The notes under the pieces: model-generated | Seen by the model: the letters and a program-made list of their open reading frames with translations, nothing else | Told to the model about the DNA's origin: nothing | Database searches by the model: none | Made by a program: the position numbers and the translations under genes | In this document: positions 11,179-46,327 of the stretch, piece after piece | Layout of the letters: every line of letters starts with the position of its first letter | Numbering within the stretch: position 1 is the stretch's first letter | Assembly (NCBI GenBank): GCA_964415465.1 | Contig: CAYQAL010000001.1 | Span: 66,749-130,748, forward strand | From: an uncultured Gammaproteobacteria bacterium | GTDB lineage: Bacteria; Patescibacteriota; Patescibacteriia; 2-12-FULL-60-25 | Length of the DNA stretch: 64,000 bases | Direction of reading: 5' to 3'

Positions 11179-12954
11179 CTAGCTCATTTCTTGAAAGTTT
11201 GCAAGCTTTTCAAGCTCTTCTTGAATTCGAATCCATTCGTGCTCTGTGTGGGCCAGAATCGTTTCAGCCTGGTGGAGTTCTTTTTGTCGTTCGATCGAGT
11301 AGCCCGTAGGATCCTTCAGATAGGCATCTAACAGCGCCTGACGCTTCTTTCCATAGTCATCCAGCTGCTTTTCGATCGTTTTTAATTGACGCTTGAGCTC
11401 TTGTGTTCGTTCATGCCGGTCACGCTTTTCTTGCTTGCGTGCTTCTTCGGCGAAGTCTGTTTCATCCATTGGGACCATCTCACGACGCGTATCCGAAACA
11501 TACTCTTCGTAGCCACGTGGGTCCAAGCCGGCACGGCCGTTTCGTACTTCGAGCAGGTGGGTAGCGAGTGTCTTAACGAACGTACGTGAGTGACTCACGA
11601 AGAGCACGGTTCCTTTCCAACGAGTGAGCGCTTCGGCGAGCGCCTCCGTTGTCTCCATGTCCAAATGGTTCGTCGGTTCGTCAAGTAATAAAATATCAGG
11701 ACGCCCTAAGAGGAGACCGGCCAAACACAGACGCGAACGTTCGCCACCACTCAATACCCCGATGGGTTTATCGAGGTCATCTTCACGAAACAGAAAGTCA
11801 CTTGCGAGTTGAAGAAGGTCTTGTCTCACGACCGCTTGATCAGAAGCGAGTTCCAAGTGGCGCATGACGGTGAGGCTTGGATCAAGCGACTCTGTGACGT
11901 GCTGTGCGTAGACGGCGGCCTTCAAGCGATTAGCGAGTGTAAACGTTCCATCAAGCGGAGCAATTTGTTCTGAGAGTGTTTTTAACAGCGTTGATTTTCC
12001 TTGGCCGTTTTCCCCAACAATCGCCACGCGCTCTCCACGCTGGATTTCAAACGTAATGCCAGAAGCGACCGTTCGATCTGGGTAACCAATACTCAGTTCA
12101 TGCGTACGGAGCGCAAACGTCTTCCGAAACTCCACTTGAGGAATCCGGAGTCGAATGGTTGGGAGTGGGGGATCAATCTCAAGCGTGTTCAGTTTCCGGA
12201 GTTGCTTCATCTTGGATTGTGCTTGCGTTGCCTTCGAGGCTTTGGCACGGAAGCGCGTGATGAATTCTTCTAGGTGCGCCCGTTGCTCTTCGACGTTTTT
12301 ATTGAAACGCTCACGCATTTGATCGCGTTCTTCTTTGTAGCGCTGATAGGTGTCGACATCGCCTGGGAAGCTTGTGGCTTTTCCACGCTCAAGCTCAACC
12401 GTTCGATCACAGACGTTCCGCAAAAACGTACGATCGTGGGAAATAATCAAACATGCGTGACGAAACTCGTTCAACCACGCTTCAAGCAAGAATTGCGTTT
12501 GAAGGTCAAGGTGGTTGGTCGGTTCATCAAGGAGGAGAAGGGCTGGGTCTTGCAGCGCGAGCAACGTCAGCAAGATGCGCATGCGATAACCACCAGACAA
12601 ATCGTTACAGGGACGTGCTAGATGCTCTCTCTTCAGTCCAAAGCGTGAAGCCTCTTTCGCGCAGGTCCAGCTGGGTTTGCCGCTCTTTTCCTCTAGATAG
12701 GCTTCGACGGTTACGTTGTCTGGAAACTCTGCATGCTGCTCCAGATAGCCAATTGTACAACTATCAAATTTCAGGACTTCCCCTTGATCAGCCGCCTCCT
12801 TACCCGCAATGATGCGCATGAGCGTAGATTTCCCAGCGCCATTCCGCCCAATCAATCCAATCTTTTGCCCATCAGCAACGCTAAACGCTACTCCATCAAG
12901 GACGTGTTGGAGTCCGTACGACTTGGTGAGTCCTTGAATCTGGAGCAATGTCAT
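11179..12954 (-). CDS. ABC-F family ATPase (two ABC cassettes, no TM domain; translation-factor type)
   Basis: Walker A GRNGAGKST and GENGQGKST, signatures LSGGYRMR and LSGGERSR, charged C-terminal coiled coil. Confidence 0.9.
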   Translation of the reverse strand: MTLLQIQGLTKSYGLQHVLDGVAFSVADGQKIGLIGRNGAGKSTLMRIIAGKEAADQGEVLKFDSCTIGYLEQHAEFPDNVTVEAYLEEKSGKPSWTCAKEASRFGLKREHLARPCNDLSGGYRMRILLTLLALQDPALLLLDEPTNHLDLQTQFLLEAWLNEFRHACLIISHDRTFLRNVCDRTVELERGKATSFPGDVDTYQRYKEERDQMRERFNKNVEEQRAHLEEFITRFRAKASKATQAQSKMKQLRKLNTLEIDPPLPTIRLRIPQVEFRKTFALRTHELSIGYPDRTVASGITFEIQRGERVAIVGENGQGKSTLLKTLSEQIAPLDGTFTLANRLKAAVYAQHVTESLDPSLTVMRHLELASDQAVVRQDLLQLASDFLFREDDLDKPIGVLSGGERSRLCLAGLLLGRPDILLLDEPTNHLDMETTEALAEALTRWKGTVLFVSHSRTFVKTLATHLLEVRNGRAGLDPRGYEEYVSDTRREMVPMDETDFAEEARKQEKRDRHERTQELKRQLKTIEKQLDDYGKKRQALLDAYLKDPTGYSIERQKELHQAETILAHTEHEWIRIQEELEKLANFQEMS

Positions 12955-19896: not shown

Positions 19897-19970
19897 TCCG
19901 GGATCGTCTAATGGTAGGACAACGGCCTTTGAAGCCGTGTATCTTGGTTCGAATCCAAGTCCCGGAGCCA
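19897..19970 (+). tRNA. tRNA-Gln (anticodon TTG)
   Basis: Cloverleaf by hand: acceptor TCCGGGA/TCCCGGA (U1-A72), anticodon arm ACGGC-CTTTGAA-GCCGT, T-loop TTCGAAT, G73, encoded CCA. Confidence 0.9.
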
Positions 19971-20453: not shown

Positions 20454-21179
20454 ATGAAATGGGAGCAATGTTTTGTTAATGTTTGCGATTCAGTATTTCG
20501 AATTAGAATTACATCGAGCGGAGGCCGATTTACCGGAACCGGTTTTGTTGCCGGTGTGTATGAAGTCAATCAAAAATTGAGCTGTGTGTTAGCCACCGCA
20601 AAACATCTTGTGATTAAATTGCGTGAAGACGAAAATGTTTTGTGGGAAGTTCAAAAAATAAACTGGCATGGTGATGTGGTGGGCGAGGTGAAGTTCGAGT
20701 CGAATATAAGCAAACTCGGTAACGGACCAGTAAGACTGTACCAAGATACGGACATAGCAATGCTAGCGATACCCATAGTTGATTTTCCTATCAAGCCAGT
20801 TAGGATCATCCATCCCTCTTACGAAGTTTACCCTGGCACACGGGTTGGTTGGGCTGGATTTCCTTCTTTTACGAGAAAAAGAACTAATGACAGGCAATAT
20901 CCTTGCTATTTTGAAGGTGTTATTTCATCAGTAGTTATAGAGAAAGGACGCTTATTCTATTTTGTCGATGGTCACGGTGGCGAGGGCGTAAGCGGCGGAC
21001 CACTATGGTATTGGAACGACGAGCAATCAAATTACGAAGTCATTGGAATTTGTAGCCAATATTTAAAGGCAGGCGATACGAACCTTGCTGCTCCAGGAAT
21101 GGTTGTATTTGAGTCAGTGAAGCCACTAATTACCTACCTAAGTACTTCAAGTGAAATAACGATGAATATTATTCATTAA
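20454..21179 (+). CDS. trypsin-like serine protease without a signal peptide
   Basis: Putative triad H in TAKHL, D in DTDIAML, S in GEGVSGGPLW (GDSGGP-like). AT-rich gene, about 35-45% GC by eye. Confidence 0.7.
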   Translation: MKWEQCFVNVCDSVFRIRITSSGGRFTGTGFVAGVYEVNQKLSCVLATAKHLVIKLREDENVLWEVQKINWHGDVVGEVKFESNISKLGNGPVRLYQDTDIAMLAIPIVDFPIKPVRIIHPSYEVYPGTRVGWAGFPSFTRKRTNDRQYPCYFEGVISSVVIEKGRLFYFVDGHGGEGVSGGPLWYWNDEQSNYEVIGICSQYLKAGDTNLAAPGMVVFESVKPLITYLSTSSEITMNIIH

Positions 21180-21274
21180 TTTTTTAAAAAGCTTACTATA
21201 TACTTTAAAACCTTCTCAAGAGCCCCTCAAACTCCTTGCAAAGCCTAGTCTGCAACCAGCCCGTCGAGCCACGC

Positions 21275-21310
21275 AAAACCGACCTCAAATGAAGGTCGGT
21301 TTTGTCATTT
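21275..21310. terminator. bidirectional intrinsic terminator
   Basis: AAAACCGACC-loop-GGTCGGTTTT flanked by an A-run and a T-run. Confidence 0.6.
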
Positions 21311-21342
21311 TTCAAGAACTGAAATACCGCGCTCCCTGGGGA

Positions 21343-21363
21343 GTACCGCAAGGGGTGCGGTAC
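21343..21363 (-). terminator. GC hairpin downstream of the island-2 genes
   Basis: GTACCGCA-AGGGG-TGCGGTAC: 8-bp perfect stem with no clear T-run. Confidence 0.4.
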
Positions 21364-21390
21364 GTCAGGGGCGCGGCGTGAGTGCCGACC

Positions 21391-21543
21391 CTACTGCTTG
21401 GCGGGGAAGCAGAAGAGCAGGGGCCTCCCACCCTGCTTCGTCTGCCTCCCGCTTGCCTTCCAGTGCACGATCATCTCGCGCGTCTTCTGGAAGAGGAGGG
21501 TGAGGTCCTGGGGCGCGGTCTCTTCGGTGTATGTGGCTTCCAT
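21391..21543 (-). CDS. 50-aa small protein (MEATYTEETAPQDLTLLFQKTREMIVHWKASGRQTKQGGRPLLFCFPAKQ)
   Basis: GGAGA SD 6 nt upstream of the ATG; 15 nt after the stop of the upstream gene; below the ORF-track cutoff. Confidence 0.5.
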   Translation of the reverse strand: MEATYTEETAPQDLTLLFQKTREMIVHWKASGRQTKQGGRPLLFCFPAKQ

Positions 21544-21558
21544 GGCGTCTCTCCTGAC

Positions 21559-22128
21559 TCAGGGGCTTCGGATGATCTCCGTTCCCTGCTGGATGATGAT
21601 GGTGTTGCCGGGTGTCTCGAGGAACGACATGAGGTCGTCGACCTGCTCCGGCGTCTTCTCGAGGAAGCGGCGTCGGAGGAGCTCCTCGATCGCCGGGGCG
21701 TTCGCGACGATCCAGACGGTGTCGGTGCGCTCGGCGGCCGCGGTGATGGGGGACCTCGAGCGTTCGATGCCGTTCGCGGCGAGGAGCGCTTCGTCGCTCA
21801 ACGCTGTGGTCAGCATGATCGCCGCATAGCCGTCGGCGTGCGGCACAGTCTTGTCGATCGGGCCTGGCACGACGAGCGTTGCGAGCTTGTCGGGGCGATC
21901 GCGCCACCGCACTCGCATGGCCTCGTTGTCGATCCCGATCACGAACTTGGCGTTGAGGACGTAGGCCTCCTGGATCGCGGCGGTCACCTGTCCCTGCGTC
22001 AGTCTCTGACCGTCAGGAAGTCCGGCTTGCCGTTCGCGGATCAGCCGACTCGCGATCTCGAACAGCCGAGTGCGGCTCTCGAGTCTGCGAAGAGAGAGGG
22101 GAGAGGTATCATCTGAGGCGCCGGTCAT
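21559..22128 (-). CDS. 189-aa hypothetical protein with high-GC (actinobacterial-like) codon usage
   Basis: ORF track 21559..22227 trimmed to ATG 22128 (MTGASDDTSPL...), preceded by GGAGA at 6 nt. Third codon positions are overwhelmingly G or C. No family recognised. Confidence 0.7.
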   Translation of the reverse strand: MTGASDDTSPLSLRRLESRTRLFEIASRLIRERQAGLPDGQRLTQGQVTAAIQEAYVLNAKFVIGIDNEAMRVRWRDRPDKLATLVVPGPIDKTVPHADGYAAIMLTTALSDEALLAANGIERSRSPITAAAERTDTVWIVANAPAIEELLRRRFLEKTPEQVDDLMSFLETPGNTIIIQQGTEIIRSP

Positions 22129-22385
22129 AGCATTCTCCGTGGCAGGTCTCGCCAGAATCGGCGAGAGGGGGGTCGGGTGAGCGGTGAGTCCTAAGCTTCT
22201 CTCCTTAGATAAGATATAAGAAGACAAAATGAGGCATCACCACTCTGTAAAAGGAACCGGAAACAATAACAAAATATAGGATTTTGTCAATCGAAAGGTC
22301 TATTTTTAGCTAAGAACTAGCTTGATTGCTTGCCTTTTAGAGGCTTGGGCGTACACTGAGCACCTCTTCTATTCTTCTCTTCTCT

Positions 22386-24008
22386 ATGTCTCTTCAGACG
22401 CTGCTTGGTCGAATGCGTGAAAACTGGAAGTCCGGCCTAACGGTTTCCTTGGTTTCGATTCCACTCTCCGTTTCTTTAGCGGTTGCTTCTCAATCTACTC
22501 CGACAGCAGGTATTATCACGGCGATTTGGGCGGGGCTCATGGCCTCGATTTTTGGAGGGAGTAATTTTAATATCATTGGTCCTACAGGAGCTCTGTCTGG
22601 ATTTCTTGCGACCTACGCGATCGTGCATGGTGCACACACCTTGCCGATGCTTGCGTTAGTAACAGGGGTGTTCGTGTTGATTGCCTATGTGTTCAAGCTT
22701 GAGAAATTCCTCGTGTTTGTTCCAGGAAGTGCGGTTCATGGCTTCACCTTAGGCGTCGCTTTTATTATCGCCTTCAACCAATTCAATTTCGCGCTTGGCT
22801 TGTCCGGTTTGCCAAAGCATGAAGCGTTTATTGATAACTTGTTTGAGTCGTTCCGTCATATTGGTGCGTTGAACCCACAGATCTTCGTGATGTTCTTGAT
22901 CTTCTTGGCGTTGATGTTTGTAATGTTGAAAGTGATCCCAAAAATTCCAGGAGCGATTGTCTTGGCTCCGATTGGTATTTTAATTGGGTATTTGTCGCAG
23001 AAGGGGATCGTGCCAGTCGCTGTGCAAACCTTGGGCTCTCGTTACCCAGACATGACGCCAAAGTTGTTTGAGATGCCCACGTTCTTTTTTCATTCCTCGT
23101 TGATTACCGCTGGGTTAGCCGTTGCGGTGATCGCGATTTTGGAAACGATGCTTTCTGCCAAAATCGCAGACGGCATGACGAAGACGAAGCACAATAAGCG
23201 CAAGGAAATGTTCGGCTTGGGCGTGGCGAACTTAGCATCCGGATTGATGGGCGGTATTCCTGCCACGGCGGCCTTGGCACGTACGTCTCTTAATGTAAAA
23301 ACAGGAGCGACGAGTAAAATGTCGGCAACGATCAGTAGTGTCGCCATTGCGATCATTTCGATCTTCTTACTTACGACGTTCCGCTACATTCCACTCGCGG
23401 TCATTGCAGCTATCTTGGTTTTCGTCGCCTTCCGCATGATTGAGCGCGAACACTTTGTTCGTATGTTCCATTCGGACAAGAAAAATTTCGTGATCGCTCT
23501 TTTGGTAGCGATTGCGACGATCTGGATTGATCCGATTGTCGGTATCTTGATTGGAACAGCAATCGCTCTCTTGATTTTCGTGGAGAAGCTATCACGTGGT
23601 CAATTTGAACTGATCGTTGATAATGAAGACCACAAATTTACCGAAAAAATCACCTCAGAAACGCTCGAGAAGATCGAGAAAGTTGGAGATACCATTATCT
23701 ACTCAATCAAAGGACAGTTGGCGTATATCAATGGTCAATCTCACATTGCACGCTTTGAGCAAGGATTGAACGCCTACAAACACATCGTCCTTCGTCTACG
23801 TGAACTGTCATTTATCGACCTGGATGGCGTGGATGCATTCGATGAAATCGTTCATCTCATCCAATCTCAAGGAAAAAAAGTCTTAGTCTCCGGGGCGAGT
23901 CCGCTAGTGAGTGAATTGCTCCAAGAGAGTCATGCCTATAAGAAGCTGGAACAAGAAGGGGCGGTCTTTACACGTACGAGTGAGGCTTTGAAAACGCTTG
24001 GTTATTAA
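22386..24008 (+). CDS. SulP-family anion transporter with a C-terminal STAS domain
   Basis: 540 aa, multi-pass SulP-type membrane core, C-terminal STAS-like fold (IVLRLRELSFIDLDGVDAFDEI). Confidence 0.9.
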   Translation: MSLQTLLGRMRENWKSGLTVSLVSIPLSVSLAVASQSTPTAGIITAIWAGLMASIFGGSNFNIIGPTGALSGFLATYAIVHGAHTLPMLALVTGVFVLIAYVFKLEKFLVFVPGSAVHGFTLGVAFIIAFNQFNFALGLSGLPKHEAFIDNLFESFRHIGALNPQIFVMFLIFLALMFVMLKVIPKIPGAIVLAPIGILIGYLSQKGIVPVAVQTLGSRYPDMTPKLFEMPTFFFHSSLITAGLAVAVIAILETMLSAKIADGMTKTKHNKRKEMFGLGVANLASGLMGGIPATAALARTSLNVKTGATSKMSATISSVAIAIISIFLLTTFRYIPLAVIAAILVFVAFRMIEREHFVRMFHSDKKNFVIALLVAIATIWIDPIVGILIGTAIALLIFVEKLSRGQFELIVDNEDHKFTEKITSETLEKIEKVGDTIIYSIKGQLAYINGQSHIARFEQGLNAYKHIVLRLRELSFIDLDGVDAFDEIVHLIQSQGKKVLVSGASPLVSELLQESHAYKKLEQEGAVFTRTSEALKTLGY

Positions 24009-24027
24009 GTAGAGATCTAGTTAAATG

Positions 24028-24062
24028 CAAACATACCCAGGATTTATTCCTGGGTATGTTTG
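24028..24062 (+). terminator. perfect 15-bp hairpin after the SulP gene
   Basis: CAAACATACCCAGGA-TTTAT-TCCTGGGTATGTTTG. Confidence 0.6.
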
Positions 24063-24167
24063 AATCCTTTCGCTACCAAACGTACTGATAGAGATAGGAC
24101 TTGGCCGTTGAGTCAGCTGGCCAGGCCGGTTCGTTACCACCGCAGGTTTGCGATGGACGACGAGTAT

Positions 24168-24407
24168 TTACGGATACTCACAGCCGGAGGAAGCGTTTTC
24201 GGCGCTTCGCCGTGAACGTTGATCCGAGCGTTCCTCGGCCAGCTTCTTCGCCGTCTCCATCGTTCGCGCTATGTACCTCTTCTGTGAGGTGTGCACGATG
24301 GAGCGACTTCGGCTGGTTGAGTGTTCGATAGAAATCTTCGCCTTCTGTCGTCTTGGATCGGACGACGGGTTCCTGGTTGACGAGGGCAGAACATCCAGGT
24401 TCTTCAC
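24168..24407 (-). CDS. 79-aa Ser/Arg/Lys-rich ORF, GTG start overlapping the stop of mini-ORF e
   Basis: GTGA overlap with the upstream mini-ORF. Best GC3 of the three minus frames by hand count. No family recognised. Confidence 0.25.
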   Translation of the reverse strand: MKNLDVLPSSTRNPSSDPRRQKAKISIEHSTSRSRSIVHTSQKRYIARTMETAKKLAEERSDQRSRRSAENASSGCEYP

Positions 24408-24439
24408 CTGAGTCGGAAGTCGCGCCAGGTCTTAGACAT
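24404..24439 (-). CDS. mini-ORF e: MSKTWRDFRLR*
   Basis: ATG with the context gaagggattgaaagcc. Shares TGGCGCGACTT with mini-ORF d. Its TGA stop overlaps the GTG of the 79-aa ORF. Confidence 0.3.
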   Translation of the reverse strand: MSKTWRDFRLR

Positions 24440-24598
24440 GGCTTTCAATCCCTTCGACTATTCCCGATCGCGCCGCGTGACCCGCGTGGGCTCAGCCGCG
24501 ATCGGTACGCGTGAGTCTTCGCCGTAGAATGACTCACTGCCAGGCAGGTCAATTGCAGGAAGTTCTCACCTTACGGCAGATGAGTTCTTCCGACGTCC

Positions 24599-24625
24599 CT
24601 ATACGAGACAAAAGTCGCGCCACAT
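24599..24625 (-). CDS. mini-ORF d: MWRDFCLV*
   Basis: AAGGAG 10 nt upstream of the ATG; WRDF motif shared with mini-ORFs a and e. Confidence 0.3.
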   Translation of the reverse strand: MWRDFCLV

Positions 24626-25036
24626 GGCTTGCGAACTCCTTTCTCATCGAACCTCTCGAGCGGCTCCAGTCGATCGGGATGATCGAATCGAGCAGCTAGT
24701 CGAGGTGAGGTGCGTAGCGAGTGGATCCGTGGATCGGAAACGCTTGGAGCAGCCCCTCGTAGGAGTTGTGGTGGAGAGCGAAGGTGCTGCCCAGCGTTGT
24801 GGGCGTGGGGTGGGGCTTGTGTGAGTCGTCGCGGACGCCCACGGTTGGAGGCGCTTACTGTCCTTTCAGCGCCTACCGCACTTTGCCACGCGGCGGTGGG
24901 CTCGAGGTCTCGTGGCGCGAGACGGGTCGAGCAGGGATTGGTGTCCGGACCCCTCAGATCCGGCCGGGTTGATACGCGCCGCGTCGTTGCCGACGCAGGT
25001 TCTTCCCGGAGGAGGCGACAGAAAGCCACTCGGTCG

Positions 25037-25066
25037 CTACATGAACGGATCGCGTGAAAGCAGCAT
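25037..25066 (-). CDS. mini-ORF c: MLLSRDPFM*
   Basis: AAGGAG 7 nt upstream. Identical peptide to mini-ORF b; the three nucleotide differences are all at third codon positions. Confidence 0.35.
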   Translation of the reverse strand: MLLSRDPFM

Positions 25067-25187
25067 CTGCTTTCTCCTTCCTTGTTGCCCGTCGTATCGT
25101 CGCTGTCCGTGCGCCGTGTGCTGGACGCGTTGACGGGGTTGAGGTTGTGTGGAGCTTTGCCGATATTTCTATCGGCGACCTAAGTCG

Positions 25188-25217
25188 CTACATGAATGGA
25201 TCACGTGAGAGCAGCAT
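25188..25217 (-). CDS. mini-ORF b: MLLSRDPFM*
   Basis: AAGGAG 6 nt upstream; a conserved ~47-nt block shared with copy c, 151 bp away. Confidence 0.35.
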   Translation of the reverse strand: MLLSRDPFM

Positions 25218-25352
25218 GCTCTTCTCCTTGCAGTGGCCAGCACCCACATCGTTGCCCGTCGCGTTGGGCGCCATGATGTCGGTGGGTGCGGGGCGGGTGT
25301 CTATTTTCGGGTTGTTCTCCACGTTCCGTTGGTACGGCCGCGGAAAACAACC

Positions 25353-25391
25353 CTAGGTACCCAGACGCCAGTCACGCCAGATGCAGCTCAT
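25353..25391 (-). CDS. mini-ORF a: MSCIWRDWRLGT*
   Basis: AAGGAG 6 nt upstream, preceded by the hairpin GGGGA-ATCG-TCCCC. Confidence 0.3.
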   Translation of the reverse strand: MSCIWRDWRLGT

Positions 25392-25592
25392 GGAGTGCTC
25401 CTTGGTTGTTGGGGACGATTCCCCGTTCCGCGCTGCCTTGTCGTTGAGCCGAGTAGTCGCCGAAGCGACCGTGCTCTGTGACCGCGTTGCAGCGCGACCT
25501 AATAATATACTACAAATCTCAACTTTTGTCAATGTATTTGAATATTTTTGCCTAAATAAACAGAAAAACTCATTCCGAGGCTAGCTCAGATT

Positions 25593-25601
25593 TGCTATAC
25601 T
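25593..25601 (+). promoter_or_regulatory. extended -10 TGCTATACT upstream of the nuclease gene
   Basis: TTCCGA-17-TATACT with an upstream TGn; the ATG lies 17 nt downstream with no SD. Confidence 0.35.
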
Positions 25602-25618
25602 TTTTTTCATCACTTGCT

Positions 25619-26236
25619 ATGCCTGTCCCTTCTTCCTTTACAACAAAACGACTCATTCGTTTGGTAGGTGCGCTCTGTGTCGTCCTTTTATTTGGTGCGG
25701 CCCAACTTTGGCAGAGTGAAGGAAAATTGAGTTTACCGAGTACAGAAACAGCTTCGCTTGAAGGAACGGAGCAGTATTACACCGCTTCTACAACCAGAGG
25801 GGTCCTGGCGCTTGTCACGCGCACCGTGGATGGCGATACGATTGATGCAAAGATCGAGTCTTCTGGTGAAGTGGTAAAAGTTCGCTTTCTTGGGATGAAT
25901 ACGCCTGAGTCGGTTGATCCGCGTCGTCCCGTGCAATGTTTTGGAAAAGAGGCGTCGAATCGTTTGAAGGAGTTAATCGAGGGAAAGAACGTGTTACTGA
26001 TTGATGATCCAAAGGCTGACGATCGCGATAAATATGGGCGTTGGTTACGAAATGTTGTCCGTGTAGAAGATAGCTTGGATGTAAATGCGACGCTGGTGGC
26101 ACAAGGTTATGCGAATGCGTATCTTTCGTTTCCGTTGGATGCGAAACGTAAAGCACAGATCCGTGCTCTAGAAGAGGAGGCAAAAACAAACAAGCGCGGC
26201 CTTTGGAGTCCTTCAACGTGCGAAGGAAAAAAATAA
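25619..26236 (+). CDS. secreted thermonuclease (staphylococcal nuclease fold)
   Basis: N-terminal TM/signal sequence, then VDGDTIDA...VRFLGMNTPES...DKYGRWL...GYA motifs. Start trimmed to ATG 25619. Confidence 0.85.
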   Translation: MPVPSSFTTKRLIRLVGALCVVLLFGAAQLWQSEGKLSLPSTETASLEGTEQYYTASTTRGVLALVTRTVDGDTIDAKIESSGEVVKVRFLGMNTPESVDPRRPVQCFGKEASNRLKELIEGKNVLLIDDPKADDRDKYGRWLRNVVRVEDSLDVNATLVAQGYANAYLSFPLDAKRKAQIRALEEEAKTNKRGLWSPSTCEGKK

Positions 26237-26247
26237 AGTCGATAGTC

Positions 26248-26335
26248 AAACTGGCGAGAGGGACGTACTCACCCGGTCCGCAAGCGCTTCGCTAACACCA
26301 TTGCTCCCGGGTTCGCACATCCCTCTCGCCAGTTT
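26248..26335. terminator. long compound hairpin between convergent genes (bidirectional terminator candidate)
   Basis: 16-bp perfect outer stem AAACTGGCGAGAGGGA/TCCCTCTCGCCAGTTT, inner ACCCGG/CCGGGT stem, A-run upstream and T-run downstream. Confidence 0.55.
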
Positions 26336-26345
26336 TCTTTTTGAT

Positions 26346-27230
26346 TTATCTTAAGCCACGTAGGAACGATTCCCCGGACATGGGCTTTTTCCCCTCAGGT
26401 TGAACTTCATCTAAAGCGAGAATTGATCCAGTAGCACAGGAGATTTGAAGTTCGTTTATGTTTTGTTGGGTTGTGACATGTGCTTTCAGAACTTTCAAAC
26501 GTTTTCCTTTGTATTCAATCGTTGTGCCTGGCCAAGGGGTATAGGCGCGGACGAGTCGTTCCATTTGTTCGGCGGATTGCGTGGTTGGATCAAGCTTTCC
26601 ATCTTCACGAGACAAGAGTTTGACGAACGTAGCTTTACTGTGATCTTGCTCAATAGGGGAGATGGTTCCTTCGAGATACGCGTGGAGTGTTTTGATTAAT
26701 TGCGGTGCCGCTTCTTTGAACATGCGATCGCTGAGCGTGACGGTGGTTTCGTTTGGATGAAGTTTGGTCAGCGTTTGAGACAAAATGGATCCGTGATCCA
26801 TCTGGGCATCCATGAGCATGATCGTGTTTCCCGTTTCGGTGAGTCCATCGCGAATGGCGGCGGTCATAGGAATCGCGCCACGATAGGCTGGCAAAAGCGA
26901 AGGATGAACATTTAAGACGCCACGTGGATACAGGTCGAGGACGCGTTGCGAAATGATCTGGCCGAAACTCGCTACGATCGCAACGTCGGCGTTGAGCGTT
27001 GCAAGTGTGCTGTATGCTTCGTCAGATTTTACTTGTTCAAACTGAAATACCGGCAGGTTGAGCTGCTCAGCGAGAGGTTTCATCGGCGGGGGCGTGAGGG
27101 CTCCACTTCTTCCCGTTGGGCGATCTGGCTGCGTGACAACTCCAACCACCGTGAGTGAAGGATCTTGAACGAGCGCTTCTAAACATGGCGCAACGAAGGC
27201 GGACGTTCCGTAAAAAACAACGCGAATCAT
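26346..27230 (-). CDS. fmt: methionyl-tRNA formyltransferase
   Basis: N-terminal formyltransferase fold, HPSLLPAYRG motif; sits in a def-fmt operon context. Confidence 0.9.
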   Translation of the reverse strand: MIRVVFYGTSAFVAPCLEALVQDPSLTVVGVVTQPDRPTGRSGALTPPPMKPLAEQLNLPVFQFEQVKSDEAYSTLATLNADVAIVASFGQIISQRVLDLYPRGVLNVHPSLLPAYRGAIPMTAAIRDGLTETGNTIMLMDAQMDHGSILSQTLTKLHPNETTVTLSDRMFKEAAPQLIKTLHAYLEGTISPIEQDHSKATFVKLLSREDGKLDPTTQSAEQMERLVRAYTPWPGTTIEYKGKRLKVLKAHVTTQQNINELQISCATGSILALDEVQPEGKKPMSGESFLRGLR

Positions 27231-27733: not shown

Positions 27734-29473
27734 CTACTTGAAAAACGCGATTGGATCAAGGTCAATAAGCGCTGAGGCGGCTAAGGGTTGTAAGAGTTCA
27801 ACAAGCGAAGATTCGCTGATTTCGGGGCTAAACAAGAGATGGACCACGGAGCGTGCGCCTGAGCCCGGTCGTCGAAATTCGACCGGAAACGGGCCTTCAA
27901 TTGTCCCTTGTTCACGAAGAAGTTGTTTGGCTTGGGTGAGCCAGGTGGCGACAGCGGCGTCTGTTCCATCGATCAGACATTTCACGCGTCGCCAGGTTGG
28001 CGGATAATGGAAGAGCCGACGTGTTTCGAGCTCGGCGTCGGACGTTTGTTTTACCCCATCAGCGGTTTTCCAGGCCGGCCAGGTTTCAAGATCTTGTTCA
28101 GGTGTTTGAATGATAAGCCGTCCTTCGGCGCGGCGCACACGATTCATCAAGCGACGAGCCGCAATCATCCGACGCTCGGTGCGGCGAACATCTTCAATCG
28201 CGCCGCCGAATAGGTGGCTCAGGGTGAGAGCGACCAAGCTCTTGGGAGGAATCGGCTGCTCCAACAACTCATTGGTTGTATCTCGCCAATCGATGACAAT
28301 CGCTGGTTCAGCGCGTGACCAAGCTTTTTTCAGTTGTTCGATACCAGGAATCGCTTTGCCTAAGTCAGCGCTCCCACAAGAGTCGCAGGTAAGAGGAAGG
28401 GCTTGCGTATGACCACACGAGCGGCAGACGGCACGCGTCTCTTCAGCGGCAACGGGTGCGCCGCAATGCGCACAGGTCGCCTGCCAACTGCAATCACGGC
28501 AGGTGAGGCGTCCAGCTCGACCGCGAATTGGATGGATGACAATAACTGGTCCTTCGTGTTCCTGGATGGCGAGCGCTGTGTCGGCCTGGATGCTCGGCGT
28601 CGCTGAACGCCCGCCTGGATGAAAGGCGTGAACATCTAAGGTGCAGTCGATATCTGGCGCGGTTGTGTTGGCATGAAGCGGAGGTGTTAAGCCAAACGCT
28701 TCCACGCGCACACCGGCGTACTTAGCAGCCCAGCCTGCTATACGACGGGCATCGTACCGTGGGGCCTGTTCGTCTTGTTTGTGATCGTCATTCTCTGGTT
28801 CATCAATCAAGACCAGATCGACGGTTGGGGCGAGCCAGGCGCCTAAGCGTGTTGCGATGACACAGGGGGTTTCGCCCGAAACGCAGCGAGACCAATTGGC
28901 AAAATAGGCGCCATGGGCGAGATCACCATGCAAGGGGAGAGGATCGGGCGTTACGGCTTGTAGGGCCTGACGAAAGAGGTCGATGCGTTGCGTCCAAGGT
29001 GTGAGAATAAGCACGCGCTGACCCTGGTTTAACGCCTCTTTGGCGCGCTCTATCAGTTCTGTTTCATGATCTACACTCCAATATGCATGAGCGCTCCCTG
29101 TTTTTTCTGAGAATGTTTTTGCCCCTCGTGTAGGAGTTTCCTGCTTTGGAAACCGTTTAGGGAGCGTATCCAGCCAAGCGTGCAAGACGGTCGGTAATGA
29201 AGAAAATGTGCGTTCAGCCACCCAGGTCAGCAGCTCAAGGCAGGCCGGGGGAAGCGTAAGCGATGCGGGGATTGGTCCAACAATCGGTTTTGCTCGACTC
29301 GCAAAGGCGCTCGTTGGTTTAATCGATCGAATAACCGCTTCCGTAGTATGGCCGCGTAATAAAATATAGACGAACTGTCCTACTTGATAAGATGTTTTTG
29401 TTTCATCAAACGAATAATCAAACCCATCTAAGCCGAAGGGCGTTCTGCGAATGGGAATAACTTCAGCAAACAT
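27734..29473 (-). CDS. priA: primosomal protein N' (PriA)-like, with a degenerate ATPase motif I
   Basis: N-terminal 3'-DNA-binding-like region and Cys4-Cys4 zinc fingers (CRDCSWQATCAHCGAPV...CRSCGH...CDSCGS). LIDEPE stands in place of DEEH. No GSGKT P-loop where one is expected. Confidence 0.75.
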   Translation of the reverse strand: MFAEVIPIRRTPFGLDGFDYSFDETKTSYQVGQFVYILLRGHTTEAVIRSIKPTSAFASRAKPIVGPIPASLTLPPACLELLTWVAERTFSSLPTVLHAWLDTLPKRFPKQETPTRGAKTFSEKTGSAHAYWSVDHETELIERAKEALNQGQRVLILTPWTQRIDLFRQALQAVTPDPLPLHGDLAHGAYFANWSRCVSGETPCVIATRLGAWLAPTVDLVLIDEPENDDHKQDEQAPRYDARRIAGWAAKYAGVRVEAFGLTPPLHANTTAPDIDCTLDVHAFHPGGRSATPSIQADTALAIQEHEGPVIVIHPIRGRAGRLTCRDCSWQATCAHCGAPVAAEETRAVCRSCGHTQALPLTCDSCGSADLGKAIPGIEQLKKAWSRAEPAIVIDWRDTTNELLEQPIPPKSLVALTLSHLFGGAIEDVRRTERRMIAARRLMNRVRRAEGRLIIQTPEQDLETWPAWKTADGVKQTSDAELETRRLFHYPPTWRRVKCLIDGTDAAVATWLTQAKQLLREQGTIEGPFPVEFRRPGSGARSVVHLLFSPEISESSLVELLQPLAASALIDLDPIAFFK

Positions 29474-31823: not shown

Positions 31824-33455
31824 ATGCCACGTTTTTCCCTCGCCAACCTACCGATCTCGGTGCTCCTTCTCTGGGGAGCGTTATTTGCGAGTGCGCTTGT
31901 CCTTCCGAGCGTCAATACAGGGATTTTTGCCTCACCAGACGAGACAGCGGTGGCGGTATCGATACAGCGTCTTCAGGCGACAGGAAGCGCGACTGTACCG
32001 GAACCACTAGCCGTTGAAGCTCCCTGGCTTCATCCGAGAAGCTACGTGGCGACAGGCGAGTCGCTGGTCCCGGTTGGATTTTTGGGTTGGCCCTGGTGGT
32101 TGGCACGGATTGGATTTTTGCCGATGACGGTGTTGGCTTGGGTTGCAAGTATCGTAGCTGTCTCGGGTTGTGTCCCGTGGTATCTGCTTCTTCGAAAGAG
32201 GTTTGGAGGAACAGCTGCTTGGTGGGGAACGGCGCTCGCCTGGACGTTTCCGGCGGTTCTTCTCTACGTAAACCGATCACTCTTCAGCCACTTGCCTCAG
32301 TACTCGTTGGTGTTGTGGTCGTTATGGTTCCTGGTAACCACGTTTACAGATGAGCTGAGCTTGAATAAGCGACTCGTTCGTCAGCTGCTGAGTGGGTTGT
32401 TATTTGGAATCGCCCTGTCATTTCGGCCCATGGAAACGATCTGGTTGGTACCAGTGTTTTTATTGACGCTTGCTCAATTTGGAAAGATCCAGTGGAGAAC
32501 CCTTCTGCTCGTCGCTGCGGCAACGGTGGTTGGGGTCCTGCCATTATTTTGGGCTCAAGTCCATACCTACGGAAGTTGGTTTCAGGTTGGGTATTGGATT
32601 CAGTCGAATACGGATCCTGCAGCCGTTGCTATTCCTCAGCTTGTGACCGGGGCGGCGAAGCCGTGGTACTTGGTCTTCGCTCCCTATGGCCTTCATCCAC
32701 GCAACGCGCTCTGGAACGTGCGTTCGTTTTTCCTGAGTTATCTCTGGCCATGGGCCGTCGTAACAGGCGTACTCGTTCTGTATGCCGTCTCCCGCCAGCT
32801 TGCCTTGTTCCGTGAGCATGTTCAGAGCCGAAATAAACAGGTGATGTCTCTGGTGCGTACTCTCCTTGTCTTGGGGGCGGTCGTGGGCTGGCTTCTGCTT
32901 ATCTATGGAAGCGGACTGTACGCGGACCATGTGAGGCCGGGAGCCGTTACGCTTGCTAACTCGTTTCTTCGGTATACGCTTCCCTTTGGGTTTGTGTTCG
33001 CGTGGGCGGTTGCCGCGTTCCGTCAGCGTCTCGAGCAGACGCGTTTCCCTCAAGCTCGTCGGCTGTTTTCTGCTGCGGCTGCGTGTCTACTCATATTCGG
33101 CGTTTTTACCGCGTTCGCGCGCGATGAAGAGGGGATTCTCGCTACTCGAAAAGAGCTCGGAACCTACACAACTATCCGTGCAGCAGCTCTGAAGGCCTTT
33201 CAACCGAATGACGTGATCCTCTCCGAACGTTCCGACAAGATTTTCTTCCCTGTCTTTAAAGTCGCGACGCCGTTACCAACCAAAGAGCAGCTCTCGCATC
33301 TAGCTCAAGCTTCCTCTTCAACGGCGATCGGTCTCTTCCGTCGACCGCTATCCCTCACCGAGCGCGACGACTGGCGCAAGATGGGGTACGATGTGCGTGA
33401 AGTGCAGGCGTTCGAGCGTGAACGTCTCTATCGACTCACCCCTTTTCTCCGATGA
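31824..33455 (+). CDS. GT39/GT83-like (ArnT/PMT-type) membrane glycosyltransferase
   Basis: More than 10 TM helices, with an SPDE motif in the first extracytoplasmic loop. Confidence 0.6.
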   Translation: MPRFSLANLPISVLLLWGALFASALVLPSVNTGIFASPDETAVAVSIQRLQATGSATVPEPLAVEAPWLHPRSYVATGESLVPVGFLGWPWWLARIGFLPMTVLAWVASIVAVSGCVPWYLLLRKRFGGTAAWWGTALAWTFPAVLLYVNRSLFSHLPQYSLVLWSLWFLVTTFTDELSLNKRLVRQLLSGLLFGIALSFRPMETIWLVPVFLLTLAQFGKIQWRTLLLVAAATVVGVLPLFWAQVHTYGSWFQVGYWIQSNTDPAAVAIPQLVTGAAKPWYLVFAPYGLHPRNALWNVRSFFLSYLWPWAVVTGVLVLYAVSRQLALFREHVQSRNKQVMSLVRTLLVLGAVVGWLLLIYGSGLYADHVRPGAVTLANSFLRYTLPFGFVFAWAVAAFRQRLEQTRFPQARRLFSAAAACLLIFGVFTAFARDEEGILATRKELGTYTTIRAAALKAFQPNDVILSERSDKIFFPVFKVATPLPTKEQLSHLAQASSSTAIGLFRRPLSLTERDDWRKMGYDVREVQAFERERLYRLTPFLR

Positions 33456-34915
33456 GTAAACGCGTTCCTTGGTTTCTTGCCTGGATGTTTCTCCTGCCGT
33501 GGCTTGTGGCCGGGTTGGTTGTCTTGATCTTGGTCTTAAAGCACATCCCACCGAGCGGTGTCTGGCAAGAGTCATTTGCTTTTGATGGATCTTCTCCTTG
33601 GCTCGCGACGTTTCTTCCGTCTGATCGCGTAACTCGTCCAGAGCGACAGTCTGATGGGTCGGTGGCGCAGCGGATTGTGGCAGAACCAGTGTATGCTTCA
33701 GCGCGCGTTCCGATTGTGGCGGATACGGCGGCACTCACACTCGAGGCGAAGGTTCATCGTCAGCCGCTCATAGAGCTTGGCGGAAGTCAGGATCTGCTTG
33801 GTTCGACTGAGACACTCCCTGTGTGGAGCGAAGTATTGTCTAAAGGTTGGCGAAGAGTTGCGAAGGGTAATCTCGTTGGCTACGTCCGTGATGGATTGCC
33901 GGATGATCGCTTGTGGAATGCTCCCGCAGATCGTGTGCTTCTCTGGCATGCCTCGACGACGCTTGGAACAGAGATTGAGCTACCGACGGTAGAACGATCC
34001 GTCGCGCTCTCATTGCGCGGGTCGCATGACGTGTACTTTATCCCAACGCGTGGCGCGAACTTTTTCCGCTTCCGTGTTCAAGACATGAATCGTGCGCGCA
34101 AAGGAGGAAATACCCTGTCATTCCGTCTCTTAGTCGGCGATGAAGTCGTCTGGACCGATGTCATGACGTTCCCAACACGAACGGAAAACGCGCCAAGCTC
34201 TGTCTTTGAAAAACGGATTCAATTTAATGCCTTAGAGCCGGGAACGTATCGTTTAGCCTTATCGGCTGATGATGATGTTTTCTTGCGTGGAGTGGCAACG
34301 AACATTCGTCATTGGGTGGTGGGCCCTCGTCTTTACGTGGGAGATCAGACGGGCTACGCCACTACCACCTATCCGCTTCACGCTTGGACGAATTCCCAGC
34401 ACCTTTCAGCTGAGACGCGTCATCGAGAAGGGTTGCAAACAGTGCACTTAGGGCAGGCGACAGTTGAACTTGAACAAACGCATTCAGTGTATCGTTTGTC
34501 GCGCGCTCCGTCTGAGCGAGCGGGTGACCGGGTGATCGATGCGCCAGCTGGTGATTTGTTACTCTATGGGGATGGCTTTTTTGCCTTTGAACCAGACGCA
34601 CTGTTTCTTCCAAAGCCTCGTCGTCTCACCGATCAATCTGATCCAATCGCGGAGGGGATCGAGGTTATCCAAACGTCGTATCTTCCTCCGGAAATACTCC
34701 CGGATGGCTGGATTCGGTTAACGGCTAGTGTCCCATTGCTCCAAGATATCGATCGTGTTCGTTGGACATTAGGTTTACCTGGAATCACGACGCGCCAAGG
34801 CTGGGTTGAGGTTCGTCGTGCGGAGGTTCGCTATACGCGCCATCCGGCCACCACGTGGCGTGACTGGTGGAAACTCGGTCGACGTGAACTTGCCGCCGCC
34901 TGGCACCGCCTATGA
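33452..34915 (+). CDS. membrane-anchored hypothetical protein
   Basis: 4-nt overlap with the upstream glycosyltransferase gene; N-terminal TM helix; no motif recognised. Confidence 0.6.
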   Translation: MSKRVPWFLAWMFLLPWLVAGLVVLILVLKHIPPSGVWQESFAFDGSSPWLATFLPSDRVTRPERQSDGSVAQRIVAEPVYASARVPIVADTAALTLEAKVHRQPLIELGGSQDLLGSTETLPVWSEVLSKGWRRVAKGNLVGYVRDGLPDDRLWNAPADRVLLWHASTTLGTEIELPTVERSVALSLRGSHDVYFIPTRGANFFRFRVQDMNRARKGGNTLSFRLLVGDEVVWTDVMTFPTRTENAPSSVFEKRIQFNALEPGTYRLALSADDDVFLRGVATNIRHWVVGPRLYVGDQTGYATTTYPLHAWTNSQHLSAETRHREGLQTVHLGQATVELEQTHSVYRLSRAPSERAGDRVIDAPAGDLLLYGDGFFAFEPDALFLPKPRRLTDQSDPIAEGIEVIQTSYLPPEILPDGWIRLTASVPLLQDIDRVRWTLGLPGITTRQGWVEVRRAEVRYTRHPATTWRDWWKLGRRELAAAWHRL

Positions 34916-46164: not shown

Positions 46165-46236
46165 GGGGTAGTAGCTCAATGGCAGAGCGCCCGGGTTTAG
46201 CCCCGGGAGGTGAGGGTTCGAATCCCTTCTGTTCCA
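46165..46236 (+). tRNA. tRNA-like gene with a non-canonical anticodon arm (CCCGGG-TTTAGC-CCCGGG) and a G3:U70 acceptor stem; no encoded CCA
   Basis: Acceptor GGGGTAG/CTGTTCC with three wobble pairs, D arm GCTC-AATGGCA-GAGC, T arm GAGGG-TTCGAAT-CCCTT, A73. The anticodon loop can only be 6 or 8 nt. Confidence 0.55.
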
Positions 46237-46327
46237 CAAAGAAATGTCTCTTTGAGAGGCTCGATTGGTCACGCTGACCGGTCGGGCCTCTTCCTATTTT
46301 AAGCCAAAATCCGTAAGATGGGCCGGT

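Follow-up and report, generated by a model that had tools for sequence, protein, structure and literature searches.

Between a SulP gene (22386-24008, plus strand) and a staphylococcal-nuclease homologue (25592-26236, plus strand; Pfam SNase) on contig CAYQAL010000001.1 lies a stretch of ~1.5 kb, here called the island, that carries five very short open reading frames (ORFs) on its minus strand. The window, by which we mean the whole 64,000-nucleotide stretch of DNA that was analyzed, has a GC content of ~52%. The island stands at 58% overall, with 56 to 66% along its ~1.5 kb against 40 to 50% in the flanks, and its minus strand is C- and A-rich (A 0.25, C 0.31, G 0.27, T 0.18). The preliminary description of this DNA had placed five mini-ORFs here and had seen no believable long ORF, and both observations hold. 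All five mini-ORFs are present with the peptides listed in Table 1, and the longest ORFs within the island, on both strands, are only frames rich in arginine and proline that reach at most 152 amino acids. Judged from comparative sequence analysis, the island is probably a gene for a structured RNA whose mini-ORFs are translated and under selection.

Homologous islands are found in six other lineages, in every case immediately 3' of SulP and convergent with it on the other strand. These are the loci L016/L017 (SulP 97% identical to that of the window), L024 (the same place as L023), L025 (also L026 and L027), L002 (SulP 87%), L005 (SulP 77%), and L004 (SulP 77%). What led us to L024 and L025 was a "shadow" ORF, predicted by gene callers within the island. 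In addition, the Logan assembly SRR30542704 (L046) holds an island 100% identical to that of the window; this assembly is independent, and an assembly artefact is therefore ruled out.

The island is predicted to be transcribed autonomously, between a promoter and a terminator of its own. A promoter scan across 21000-26500 returned 25532..25504 as its top promoter-like site, with a predicted transcription start at ~25497-25500. The promoter is kept at the equivalent position in L005, L016, L024, and L025, and in L004 there is one per unit. At the other end, an A-U pair in the stem of the terminator hairpin is C-G in L016, L024, L025, and L005, a compensatory change. The minus-strand U-tract of this hairpin is weak, and for this reason it was not flagged by the terminator scan. 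The predicted minus-strand transcript is ~1.48 kb long (~25497 to ~24020), and the feature as a whole extends from ~25532 (promoter) to 24025 (terminator), beyond the 24404-25391 of the preliminary description.

Table 1. Features of the island and their positions in the window.
Feature	Position	Strand	Basis or remarks
Putative sigma-70-type promoter, TTGACA-17 nt-TATATT	25504..25532	-	11/12 matches; A/T-rich stretch ahead
Predicted 5'-terminal closed stem with inner UUCG-loop hairpin (GUCGC-UUCG-GCGAC)	25428..25497	-	Minimum free energy (MFE) fold
Mini-ORF a, MSCIWRDWRLGT	25353..25391	-	AAGGAG 6 nt upstream; stop UAG
Mini-ORF b, MLLSRDPFM	25188..25217	-	AAGGAG 6 nt upstream; stop UAG
Mini-ORF c, MLLSRDPFM	25037..25066	-	AAGGAG 7 nt upstream; stop UAG
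Predicted central structured RNA domain	24650..25030	-	Conservation; RNAalifold consensus
Mini-ORF d, MWRDFCLV	24599..24625	-	AAGGAG 10 nt upstream; stop UAG
Mini-ORF e, MSKTWRDFRLR	24404..24439	-	AAGGGA 10 nt upstream; stop UGA
Predicted 3' structured RNA domain	24070..24403	-	RNAalifold, 100 pairs, 16 compensatory; holds the 79-amino-acid ORF
Predicted terminator hairpin, 18-nt arms, shared with the convergent SulP gene	24025..24065	.	Inverted repeat, 94% complementary

The finer features reported earlier are also in place: the Shine-Dalgarno (SD) sequence AAGGAG 6 to 10 nt before the ATG of most mini-ORFs (it precedes ORFs a to d, and ORF e has the weaker AAGGGA), an 11-mer common to ORFs d and e (TGGCGCGACTT), a GCAA-loop hairpin, an AGGCGCT/AGCGCCT stem, and a duplication of GATCCAC. 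As a test of chance, we counted SD-led ATG ORFs of 5 to 22 codons containing [WS]RD, with an SD-like tetramer required upstream. We observed five such ORFs in the island, against a mean of 0.006 and a maximum of 2 in 3000 dinucleotide-preserving shuffles of it. Thus, chance is excluded. Over both strands of the whole 64-kb window, we found the same five ORFs and no others.

The peptides had been sorted into two families. However, MKWRDPFM and MRWRDPFM, from other lineages, join both classes, and we therefore treat the peptides as one family. Its core is [W/S]-[R/K]-D-x-(F/R/C/L), which can also be given as [W/S]-[R/K]-D-x-hydrophobic. The distance from core to stop codon is near-fixed at 3 to 5 residues, and 0 to 6 variable residues follow the initiating Met. 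There are five ORFs per transcript in the window and one to four in the relatives. L016 and L024 encode the same four peptides, MKASKDPFM, MLLSRDPFM, MWRDFCLV, and MSKTWRDFRLR, and L025 encodes these without MWRDFCLV, ORF d having been lost there. L005 encodes MKWRDPFM, MKEIFLWRDHFKQC, and MWRDYRLR; L002 encodes MKRDPFPA and MRWRDPFM; and L004 encodes MIWRDQFK, MKWQDPLS, and MSSWRRLHHQA. Among these, MKASKDPFM is the counterpart of ORF b, MKWRDPFM and MRWRDPFM are the counterparts of ORF c, and MKEIFLWRDHFKQC is that of ORF d, which is identical in L016 and L024. Conservation is strict for MSKTWRDFRLR (four lineages) and MLLSRDPFM (four lineages). The C-terminal residues of the peptides are M, V, R, T, C, K, S, and A, and only ORF e and MWRDYRLR, its orthologue in L005, end in R-L-R. 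ORF c always lies directly 5' of the central RNA domain. ORFs b and c share a 34-nt repeat that is 91% identical and represent a recent duplication within the window lineage. ORF a is specific to the window lineage, being absent from L016, L024, and L025 and present in L005 as a degenerate remnant that has no start codon.

Two further observations concern the mini-ORFs. UAG is the dominant stop codon among them (4/5 in the window, 5/5 in L002 and L004 together), ORF e always ending in UGA, and it ends 10/57 of the long ORFs of the window; the excess of UAG may simply be local base composition. Elsewhere in the window, a 487-amino-acid protein with no Pfam match (33452-34915, plus strand) has a C terminus, ...TWRDWWKLGRRELAAAWHRL, that resembles mini-ORF a (IWRDWRLGT). 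We considered the WRDW near this C terminus as a target of mimicry and rejected it, as WRD occurs twice in ~18,000 codons, which is about the chance rate. The likeness is probably a coincidence.

The pattern of substitution within the mini-ORFs is that of coding sequence under selection on the peptide. Between the window and L016, ORF c is identical at 27/30 positions and the region 21 to 100 nt upstream at only 38/66. Between the window and L025, ORF e is identical at 34/36 positions, and the spacer ahead of it has been replaced (30/80 identical at 21 to 100 nt upstream); both differences in the ORF are synonymous (TCT>TCG and CGC>CGT). ORFs c and e stand out from surroundings that are neutral or cannot be aligned. 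ORF c has four variable sites, all of them third positions (CTT/CTC, TCA/TCT, CCG/CCA, and TAG/TAA), and all its differences are synonymous or stop to stop. Of the five sites that vary in ORF e, four are third positions (TCT/TCG, CGC/CGT/CGA, and AGG/AGA); there is also TTC/TAT, a conservative change from Phe to Tyr. A rough hand calculation of the third-position bias gives ~0.008 for ORF c (4/4) and ~0.03 for ORF e (at least 4/5). In the W-R-D instances, CGT, CGC, and CGA serve for Arg and GAC and GAT for Asp, with positions 1 and 2 unchanged; the sole first- plus second-position change in the core, CGN to AAR, is a conservative replacement of Arg by Lys. All copies retain the SD sequence, the ATG, and the in-frame stop, even where four-fold degenerate sites are saturated (0.30). 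This synonymous third-position variation and the retained SD sequence, ATG, and stop argue strongly, if indirectly, that the mini-ORFs are translated and that their peptide sequence matters. The preliminary description had made its proposal depend on conservation of the peptides among homologues; they are conserved, and their substitutions are codon-periodic. Its view of the island as an array of peptide-coding units thus stands on conserved peptides and codon periodicity, but its alternative, a leader or attenuator, is not supported, as set out below.

The RNA around the ORFs has features of its own. The predicted fold of the transcript is dense (-627 kcal/mol, MFE), and UUCG- and GNRA-type loops can be read in it. 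At the 5' end, our reading of the alignment is that the inner hairpin has been swapped for another stem, UCGGG-ACG-CCCGA, in L016, L024, and L025, and that the outer stem has changed from CUGC/GCAG to CUGG/CCAG in L005. Within the central domain are a conserved C-rich tract that is left unpaired (CCCCACC..GCCC), a motif reading ACYCGCUA..CACCYC.CCUCGA, and a hairpin, GCUYGAU...AUCGAGC. To judge its conservation, we used the four-fold degenerate sites of the adjacent SulP gene as a neutral yardstick and measured central-domain identities over 25029-24650. Identity to the window was 0.90 in the central domain and 0.60 at the SulP four-fold sites for L016, 0.93 and 0.75 for L024, 0.88 and 0.61 for L025, and 0.68 and 0.30 for L005. 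The 5' third of the island (25391-25030) has an identity of 0.57, approximately neutral. The RNAalifold consensus of the central domain, from six sequences, has 93 pairs, with 90.6% of cells paired. Compensatory changes, on both sides of the pair, are seen in 17 of them. The corresponding figure for 500 shuffles was 7.0 +/- 2.1, no shuffle reaching 17, and slid controls, in which the partners were moved by 1 to 3 columns, gave 3 to 10. Covariation drawn from few, related sequences is supportive, not conclusive. The RNA appears to be under purifying selection, with compensatory base-pair changes, and the high GC content of the island is consistent with a structured RNA. Two longer-range pairings were tried and rejected: a helix of GGCYUUCUG (spacer after ORF c) with CAGAARGC (3' domain), for which the changes in L016 go the wrong way, and a pairing of GUCGCGC at the 5' end with the WRD-coding GCGCGAC, which is unsupported in L005.

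We found no long coding frame behind this conservation. In the alignments of the window, L016, L024, L025, and L005, 1-nt and 2-nt indels and frame switching occur inside well-conserved sequence, and a search of 5.8 billion predicted proteins with the shadow ORF returned the same islands only. The island thus appears to have neither a conserved reading frame nor relatives in protein databases other than the islands. Debris of a longer protein gene was the outcome that the preliminary description had named as counting against it, and the check came out for the finding, with no conserved long frame. The stop of ORF e does overlap a 79-amino-acid ORF (24407-24168) in the sequence GTGA, as had been noted. 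However, the translational coupling that had been read from this overlap is contradicted by the lack of a conserved length or frame and by compensatory pairs in the region. As a candidate coupled gene, the ORF was rejected: it has 30 codons in L005 and, by our own reading of the alignment, 44 in L016. A conserved block, GACGACAGAARGCGAAG, falls in different reading frames in the window and L005, and 1-nt indels separate the window from L016 across this region. On these alignments, the 79-amino-acid ORF is not coding.

The homologous islands differ in architecture. L002 has a single ~700-nt transcript made up of two mini-ORFs, the central domain, and a terminator. L004 (11630-12830) has two complete tandem units, each with a promoter, one or two mini-ORFs, a structured tail, and a terminator hairpin, and the tails finish with the conserved hairpin CUUGAUC...GAUCGAG. 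The long forms (window, L016, L024, L025, and L005) have the extra mini-ORFs d and e and the 3' domain. An 11-mer, GGTGAAGAACC, lies 3' of ORF e (24398-24408) and 3' of the mini-ORF of the second unit in L004 (~11815-11825). This shared 11-mer suggests that the long form arose through fusion of independent units, and the version in the window looks like duplicated and fused units.

The distribution of the island is a narrow clade of Patescibacteria-like genomes, as far as we searched, with presence/absence and copy-number polymorphism between close relatives. There is no island 3' of SulP in L001 and L003 (SulP 86 to 87%) or in L045, whose SulP clusters with that of L005 at 90% identity, and none at loci with SulP of 69 to 76% identity (L018-22 and L041-44). 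A high-GC spot 3' of SulP in L006 was rejected as an island, as it is an unrelated small ORF. Named relatives of the SulP protein come from metagenome-assembled genomes of Magasanikbacteria, Uhrbacteria, Peribacteria, and Saccharibacteria, at 55 to 68% identity, and these are the sole basis for the term Patescibacteria-like; the records of the closest metagenome-assembled genomes carry the label "uncultured Gammaproteobacteria." A blastn search in distant mode matched the island to none of 72,556 plasmids and 50,697 phage records, and exact-pattern scans of IMG/VR with TGGCGNGAYCCNTTCATGTA and CCACNCGCTANNCACCNCNCCTCGA gave no match. A scan of JGI metagenomes with ACNCGCTANNCACCNCNCCTCGA gave 13 matches, none with similarity beyond the pattern; all are due to chance, and so the family was not extended past the SulP-linked clade. 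A profile search of the central domain (nhmmer) found no second copy in the 465 kb of sequence covered. In Rfam 15, only tRNAs of the window reached the gathering score, nothing relevant appeared at E<=5 in 21000-26000, and the islands of L016, L002, L004, and L005 had no match at E<=0.1. A full-text literature search with the peptide strings returned nothing relevant. The arrangement is undescribed for bacteria in Rfam and in the literature searched.

The best reading of these data is a modular dual-function RNA that combines translated mini-ORFs with structured RNA modules and is polycistronic for five peptides of one family. To this reading as a whole, RNA gene, mini-ORFs, and action in cis together, we give a probability of roughly 0.45, which is a compromise figure. 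A unit would consist of an SD-led ORF of 8 to 14 codons followed by structured RNA. The motif in the nascent peptide, 3 to 5 residues before the stop, would lie next to the peptidyl-transferase center and would slow termination or elongation, so that the ribosome would be held at defined points on the RNA. The held ribosome would then control folding, access of nucleases or Rho, or 3' extension of the downstream C-rich module, and the effector proper would be the structured module, acting as a riboregulator.

Action in cis, taken by itself, is a tentative proposal, somewhat short of even odds. We favor it because the position of the conserved core follows the stop codon and not the start, because the ORFs never occur without the conserved structured RNA (~1.2 kb), and because the DPFM class ends in TTC-ATG-stop, its last two codons being those of msrDL (ATGTATCTTATTTTCATGTAA). 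We also favor it because the bacterial ORFs of this size that we can name are leader or arrest peptides; among characterized bacterial ORFs of at most 14 codons, examples are MsrDL, ToiL, and PepNL, as well as peTrpL, which has a further role in trans.

Several points weigh against the dual-function RNA acting in cis. There is nothing obvious to regulate in cis, with no downstream ORF and no intrinsic terminator after any of the mini-ORFs. The stop codon of ORF c is 20 to 25 nt from the first conserved helix, beyond the footprint of a terminating ribosome, and this spacing is too long for direct unwinding. Multiple copies of one motif suit a dosage of trans-acting peptide equally well, and the resemblance to MsrDL is two residues only. 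The case for translation is comparative, drawn from seven lineages of which four are close (SulP 96 to 98% identical). Finally, the island is missing from the close relatives L001, L003, and L045, and the element is therefore dispensable.

Among known systems, the closest functional class for the island is the bacterial dual-function RNA, which includes RNAIII/hld, Psm-mec, Pel/SagA, SgrS/SgrT, SR1/SR1P, and rnTrpL/peTrpL (PMC12612679). Those named in that review have a single ORF of 14 to 53 codons in an RNA of ~100 to 510 nt, and in rnTrpL/peTrpL both the 14-residue leader peptide and the RNA are functional (PMC12612679). The island is like these in having its own predicted promoter and terminator and a small ORF, although translation is here predicted from sequence, and it is like RNAIII in its many conserved stem-loops and unpaired C-rich tracts. 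However, it has up to five ORFs of 8 to 12 codons, of one motif family, in ~1.48 kb, and it has no sequence or Rfam relationship to them.

In mechanism, the mini-ORFs come closest to short arrest peptides. Examples of arrest or leader peptides that act at or near termination are MsrDL (MYLIFM, 6 amino acids), PepNL (14 amino acids), ToiL, TnaC, and ErmDL, and in MsrDL the penultimate Phe hinders release-factor accommodation (PMC10314930, PMC11890864, PMC12121999). The mini-ORFs share with them an SD-led frame of 6 to 14 codons and a conserved peptide whose key residues lie a few positions from the stop, and the DPFM class shares the F-M-stop end of MsrDL. The R-L-R end of ORF e we take to be like the ErmDL motif. 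However, the known peptides control an adjacent downstream gene through a terminator, an SD-sequestering hairpin, or Rho, whereas the island has several copies in series and neither a downstream gene nor such a hairpin. Compared with erm/msrD attenuators, the island has the SD-led short ORF but lacks the downstream resistance gene and the terminator or SD-sequestering hairpin; the tandem codons and downstream biosynthetic operon of trp/his attenuators are both absent.

In architecture, the closest parallel is a eukaryotic one and an analogy: the polycistronic tarsal-less/polished rice (tal/pri) RNA of Drosophila, which encodes 11-residue peptides (PMC3136413, PMC11475943). Like it, the island would give a seemingly non-coding transcript of ~1.5 kb with 4 to 5 tandem mini-ORFs, a shared short motif, and separate initiation sites, and at least two tandem motif-sharing mini-ORFs per transcript, as in this class, are present. 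The inter-ORF RNA of the island, in contrast to this class, is itself conserved and structured. Other polycistronic micropeptide RNAs are plant ENOD40, which like tal/pri is eukaryotic, unrelated, and analogous only, and the staphylococcal PSM-alpha operon. PSM peptides are ~21 residues long, amphipathic, and exported, whereas those of the island are shorter and not amphipathic. The mccA gene encodes the microcin C heptapeptide, the peptide being the product, and is like the mini-ORFs a bacterial gene of <10 codons. However, MccA ends in Asn and its gene adjoins mccB-E; no mccB-E enzymes lie near the island, and no peptide of the island ends in Asn. Membership of any of these families cannot be claimed, as there is no Rfam match, no downstream gene of the attenuator type, and no enzymes of microcins or of ribosomally synthesized and posttranslationally modified peptides (RiPPs).

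A rather unlikely alternative, and the one that survives best, is a micropeptide operon, in which a polycistronic mRNA would supply peptides of 8 to 14 residues that act in trans as signals, as inhibitors, or by binding RNA or protein. Extra ORF copies would then raise the dose, and RNA structure would serve only stability and independent initiation sites. The island would in that case be a bacterial analogue of tal/pri, or an analogue of the PSM-alpha operon. This explanation accommodates up to five motif-sharing ORFs per transcript with a copy number of 1 to 5, the strict conservation of orthologous peptides (MSKTWRDFRLR and MLLSRDPFM), and a patchy presence and lineage diversification typical of accessory signalling or competition genes; moreover, the 14-residue peTrpL can act in trans (PMC12612679). 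However, it leaves the conserved, covarying inter-ORF RNA of ~1.2 kb unexplained, merely three residues are common to all copies, and no partner enzyme, transporter, or receptor is near the island. Bacterial gene products of 8 to 9 residues without an export signal also have, to our knowledge, almost no precedent, MccA being the exception.

It is improbable that the island acts as non-coding RNA only, its SD-AUG-UGGCGNGAY blocks being untranslated motifs such as decoy ribosome-binding sites, protein-binding sites (a CsrA-type sponge), or sites that bind another RNA. The strong structure and conservation of the RNA, the fivefold repetition of an SD-like motif containing GGA, and the near-invariance in nucleotides of GAYCCRTTCATGTAR, with Phe always TTC, would all fit such a role. 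However, variation within the blocks is at third positions and synonymous (CGT/CGC/CGA, GAC/GAT, CCG/CCA, TCA/TCT/TCC, and CTT/CTC), and the single first- plus second-position change in the core is the conservative one noted above, Arg to Lys. The swap of Trp for Ser and the changes in length always preserve the ATG, the frame, and the stop, and the start, the spaced SD sequence, and the in-frame stop are found everywhere despite the saturation of four-fold sites.

The preliminary description had proposed that the island may be a multi-upstream-ORF leader or attenuator. Such an element would sense drugs (erm- or msrD-like, with a +x+ motif) or amino acids (trp-like) and control a downstream gene. 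We consider this very improbable, even with the R-L-R end of ORF e and of MWRDYRLR in L005, the MsrDL-like F-M-stop of the DPFM class, and a Trp codon in most copies. After the last mini-ORF there is only structured RNA, the terminator hairpin, and the convergent SulP gene; there is thus no downstream gene on the minus strand, and the hairpin facing SulP ends the transcript. The terminator scan found no U-tract terminator after any mini-ORF on the minus strand, and we found no alternative SD-sequestering hairpin after the mini-ORFs. The hairpins that do lie 3' of the mini-ORF stop codons have no U-tracts and are not conserved between lineages. Most copies have one Trp codon (ORF a has two), and Ser or Lys takes its place in ORFs b and c and in the copies of L016 and L002. 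Genes for resistance or biosynthesis were absent from the 5 kb on each side in the Pfam and NCBIfam scans.

The last alternative, a decaying and functionless remnant of an imported gene on foreign high-GC DNA, is the least probable of all, because the GC content above the genome average and the seemingly strain-specific second high-GC insert 2 kb off (21300-22260), which has essentially no relatives, are outweighed by an island that keeps its place across seven lineages in which SulP identity falls as low as 77%, is far more conserved than neutral sites and shows compensatory stem changes, retains its promoter and terminator, has protein-level relatives only in the same islands, and, against the import proposed earlier, has zero matches in the plasmid and phage collections.

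If the dual-function reading is correct, the island is a long bacterial RNA with a strong promoter that joins a conserved fold to an array of independently initiated ORFs of 8 to 12 codons encoding one peptide family. It would broaden the range of uses for the smallest translated bacterial ORFs, would provide short peptides that can be tested for ribosome arrest (WRDF.. and [R/K]DPFM-stop), and would supply a regulatory RNA from an uncultivated group with reduced genomes, about whose regulation we know of little; we know of almost no described regulatory RNAs from Patescibacteria-like genomes. It is possible, if somewhat doubtful, that the island typifies a new class of modular gene, joining mini-ORFs to structured RNA, in which W-R-D peptides of 8 to 12 residues serve as ribosome-arrest modules, constitutive or ligand-responsive, that set the fate of a long regulatory RNA, or as trans-acting micropeptides. 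If the peptides act in trans, prokaryotes would have, for the first time, an equivalent of the polycistronic micropeptide RNAs of the tarsal-less/polished-rice type. The narrow distribution and the dispensability of the element limit its general importance.

The genes neighboring the island encode SulP, the SNase nuclease, Fmt, Def, and PriA. In the Pfam and NCBIfam scans of these neighbors, there were no ThiF/MccB, radical-SAM, or similar domains, and no gene for a modifying enzyme, transporter, or receptor that travels with the island was found among them. The SNase nuclease matches the PADLOC candidate "C3a212, SNc+LTD" at 2.8e-38. The PriA homologue (27734-29473, minus strand) has only 579 amino acids and scores far under the NCBIfam cutoffs; a short PriA fits a reduced, Patescibacteria-type genome.

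A second high-GC island lies at 21300-22290 on the minus strand (61 to 68% GC), with its own putative promoter at 22290..22263, whose sequence context matches that of the mini-ORF island promoter at 72% identity over 32 nt. It contains two SD-led ORFs, 22128-21559 (189 amino acids) and 21543-21391 (50 amino acids), that have no Pfam, NCBIfam, PHROG, or PADLOC match; the 189-amino-acid ORF has one relative among 5.8 billion proteins. L046 has different genes at this site, though its mini-ORF island is identical to that of the window. The second island lies beside tRNA-Gln (19897-19970) and looks like a strain-specific insert, and foreign high-GC DNA may be the right reading for it. Beside it is a trypsin-like peptidase (20454-21179, plus strand) with weak PADLOC matches (LmuA, 2e-6, and RT-protease). 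The PADLOC matches beside both high-GC islands hint at a defense context. Elsewhere in the window, at 46165-46237 (plus strand), ARAGORN calls a tRNA with no assigned identity and a two-base anticodon, and Rfam scores the same segment as a normal tRNA at 56 bits.

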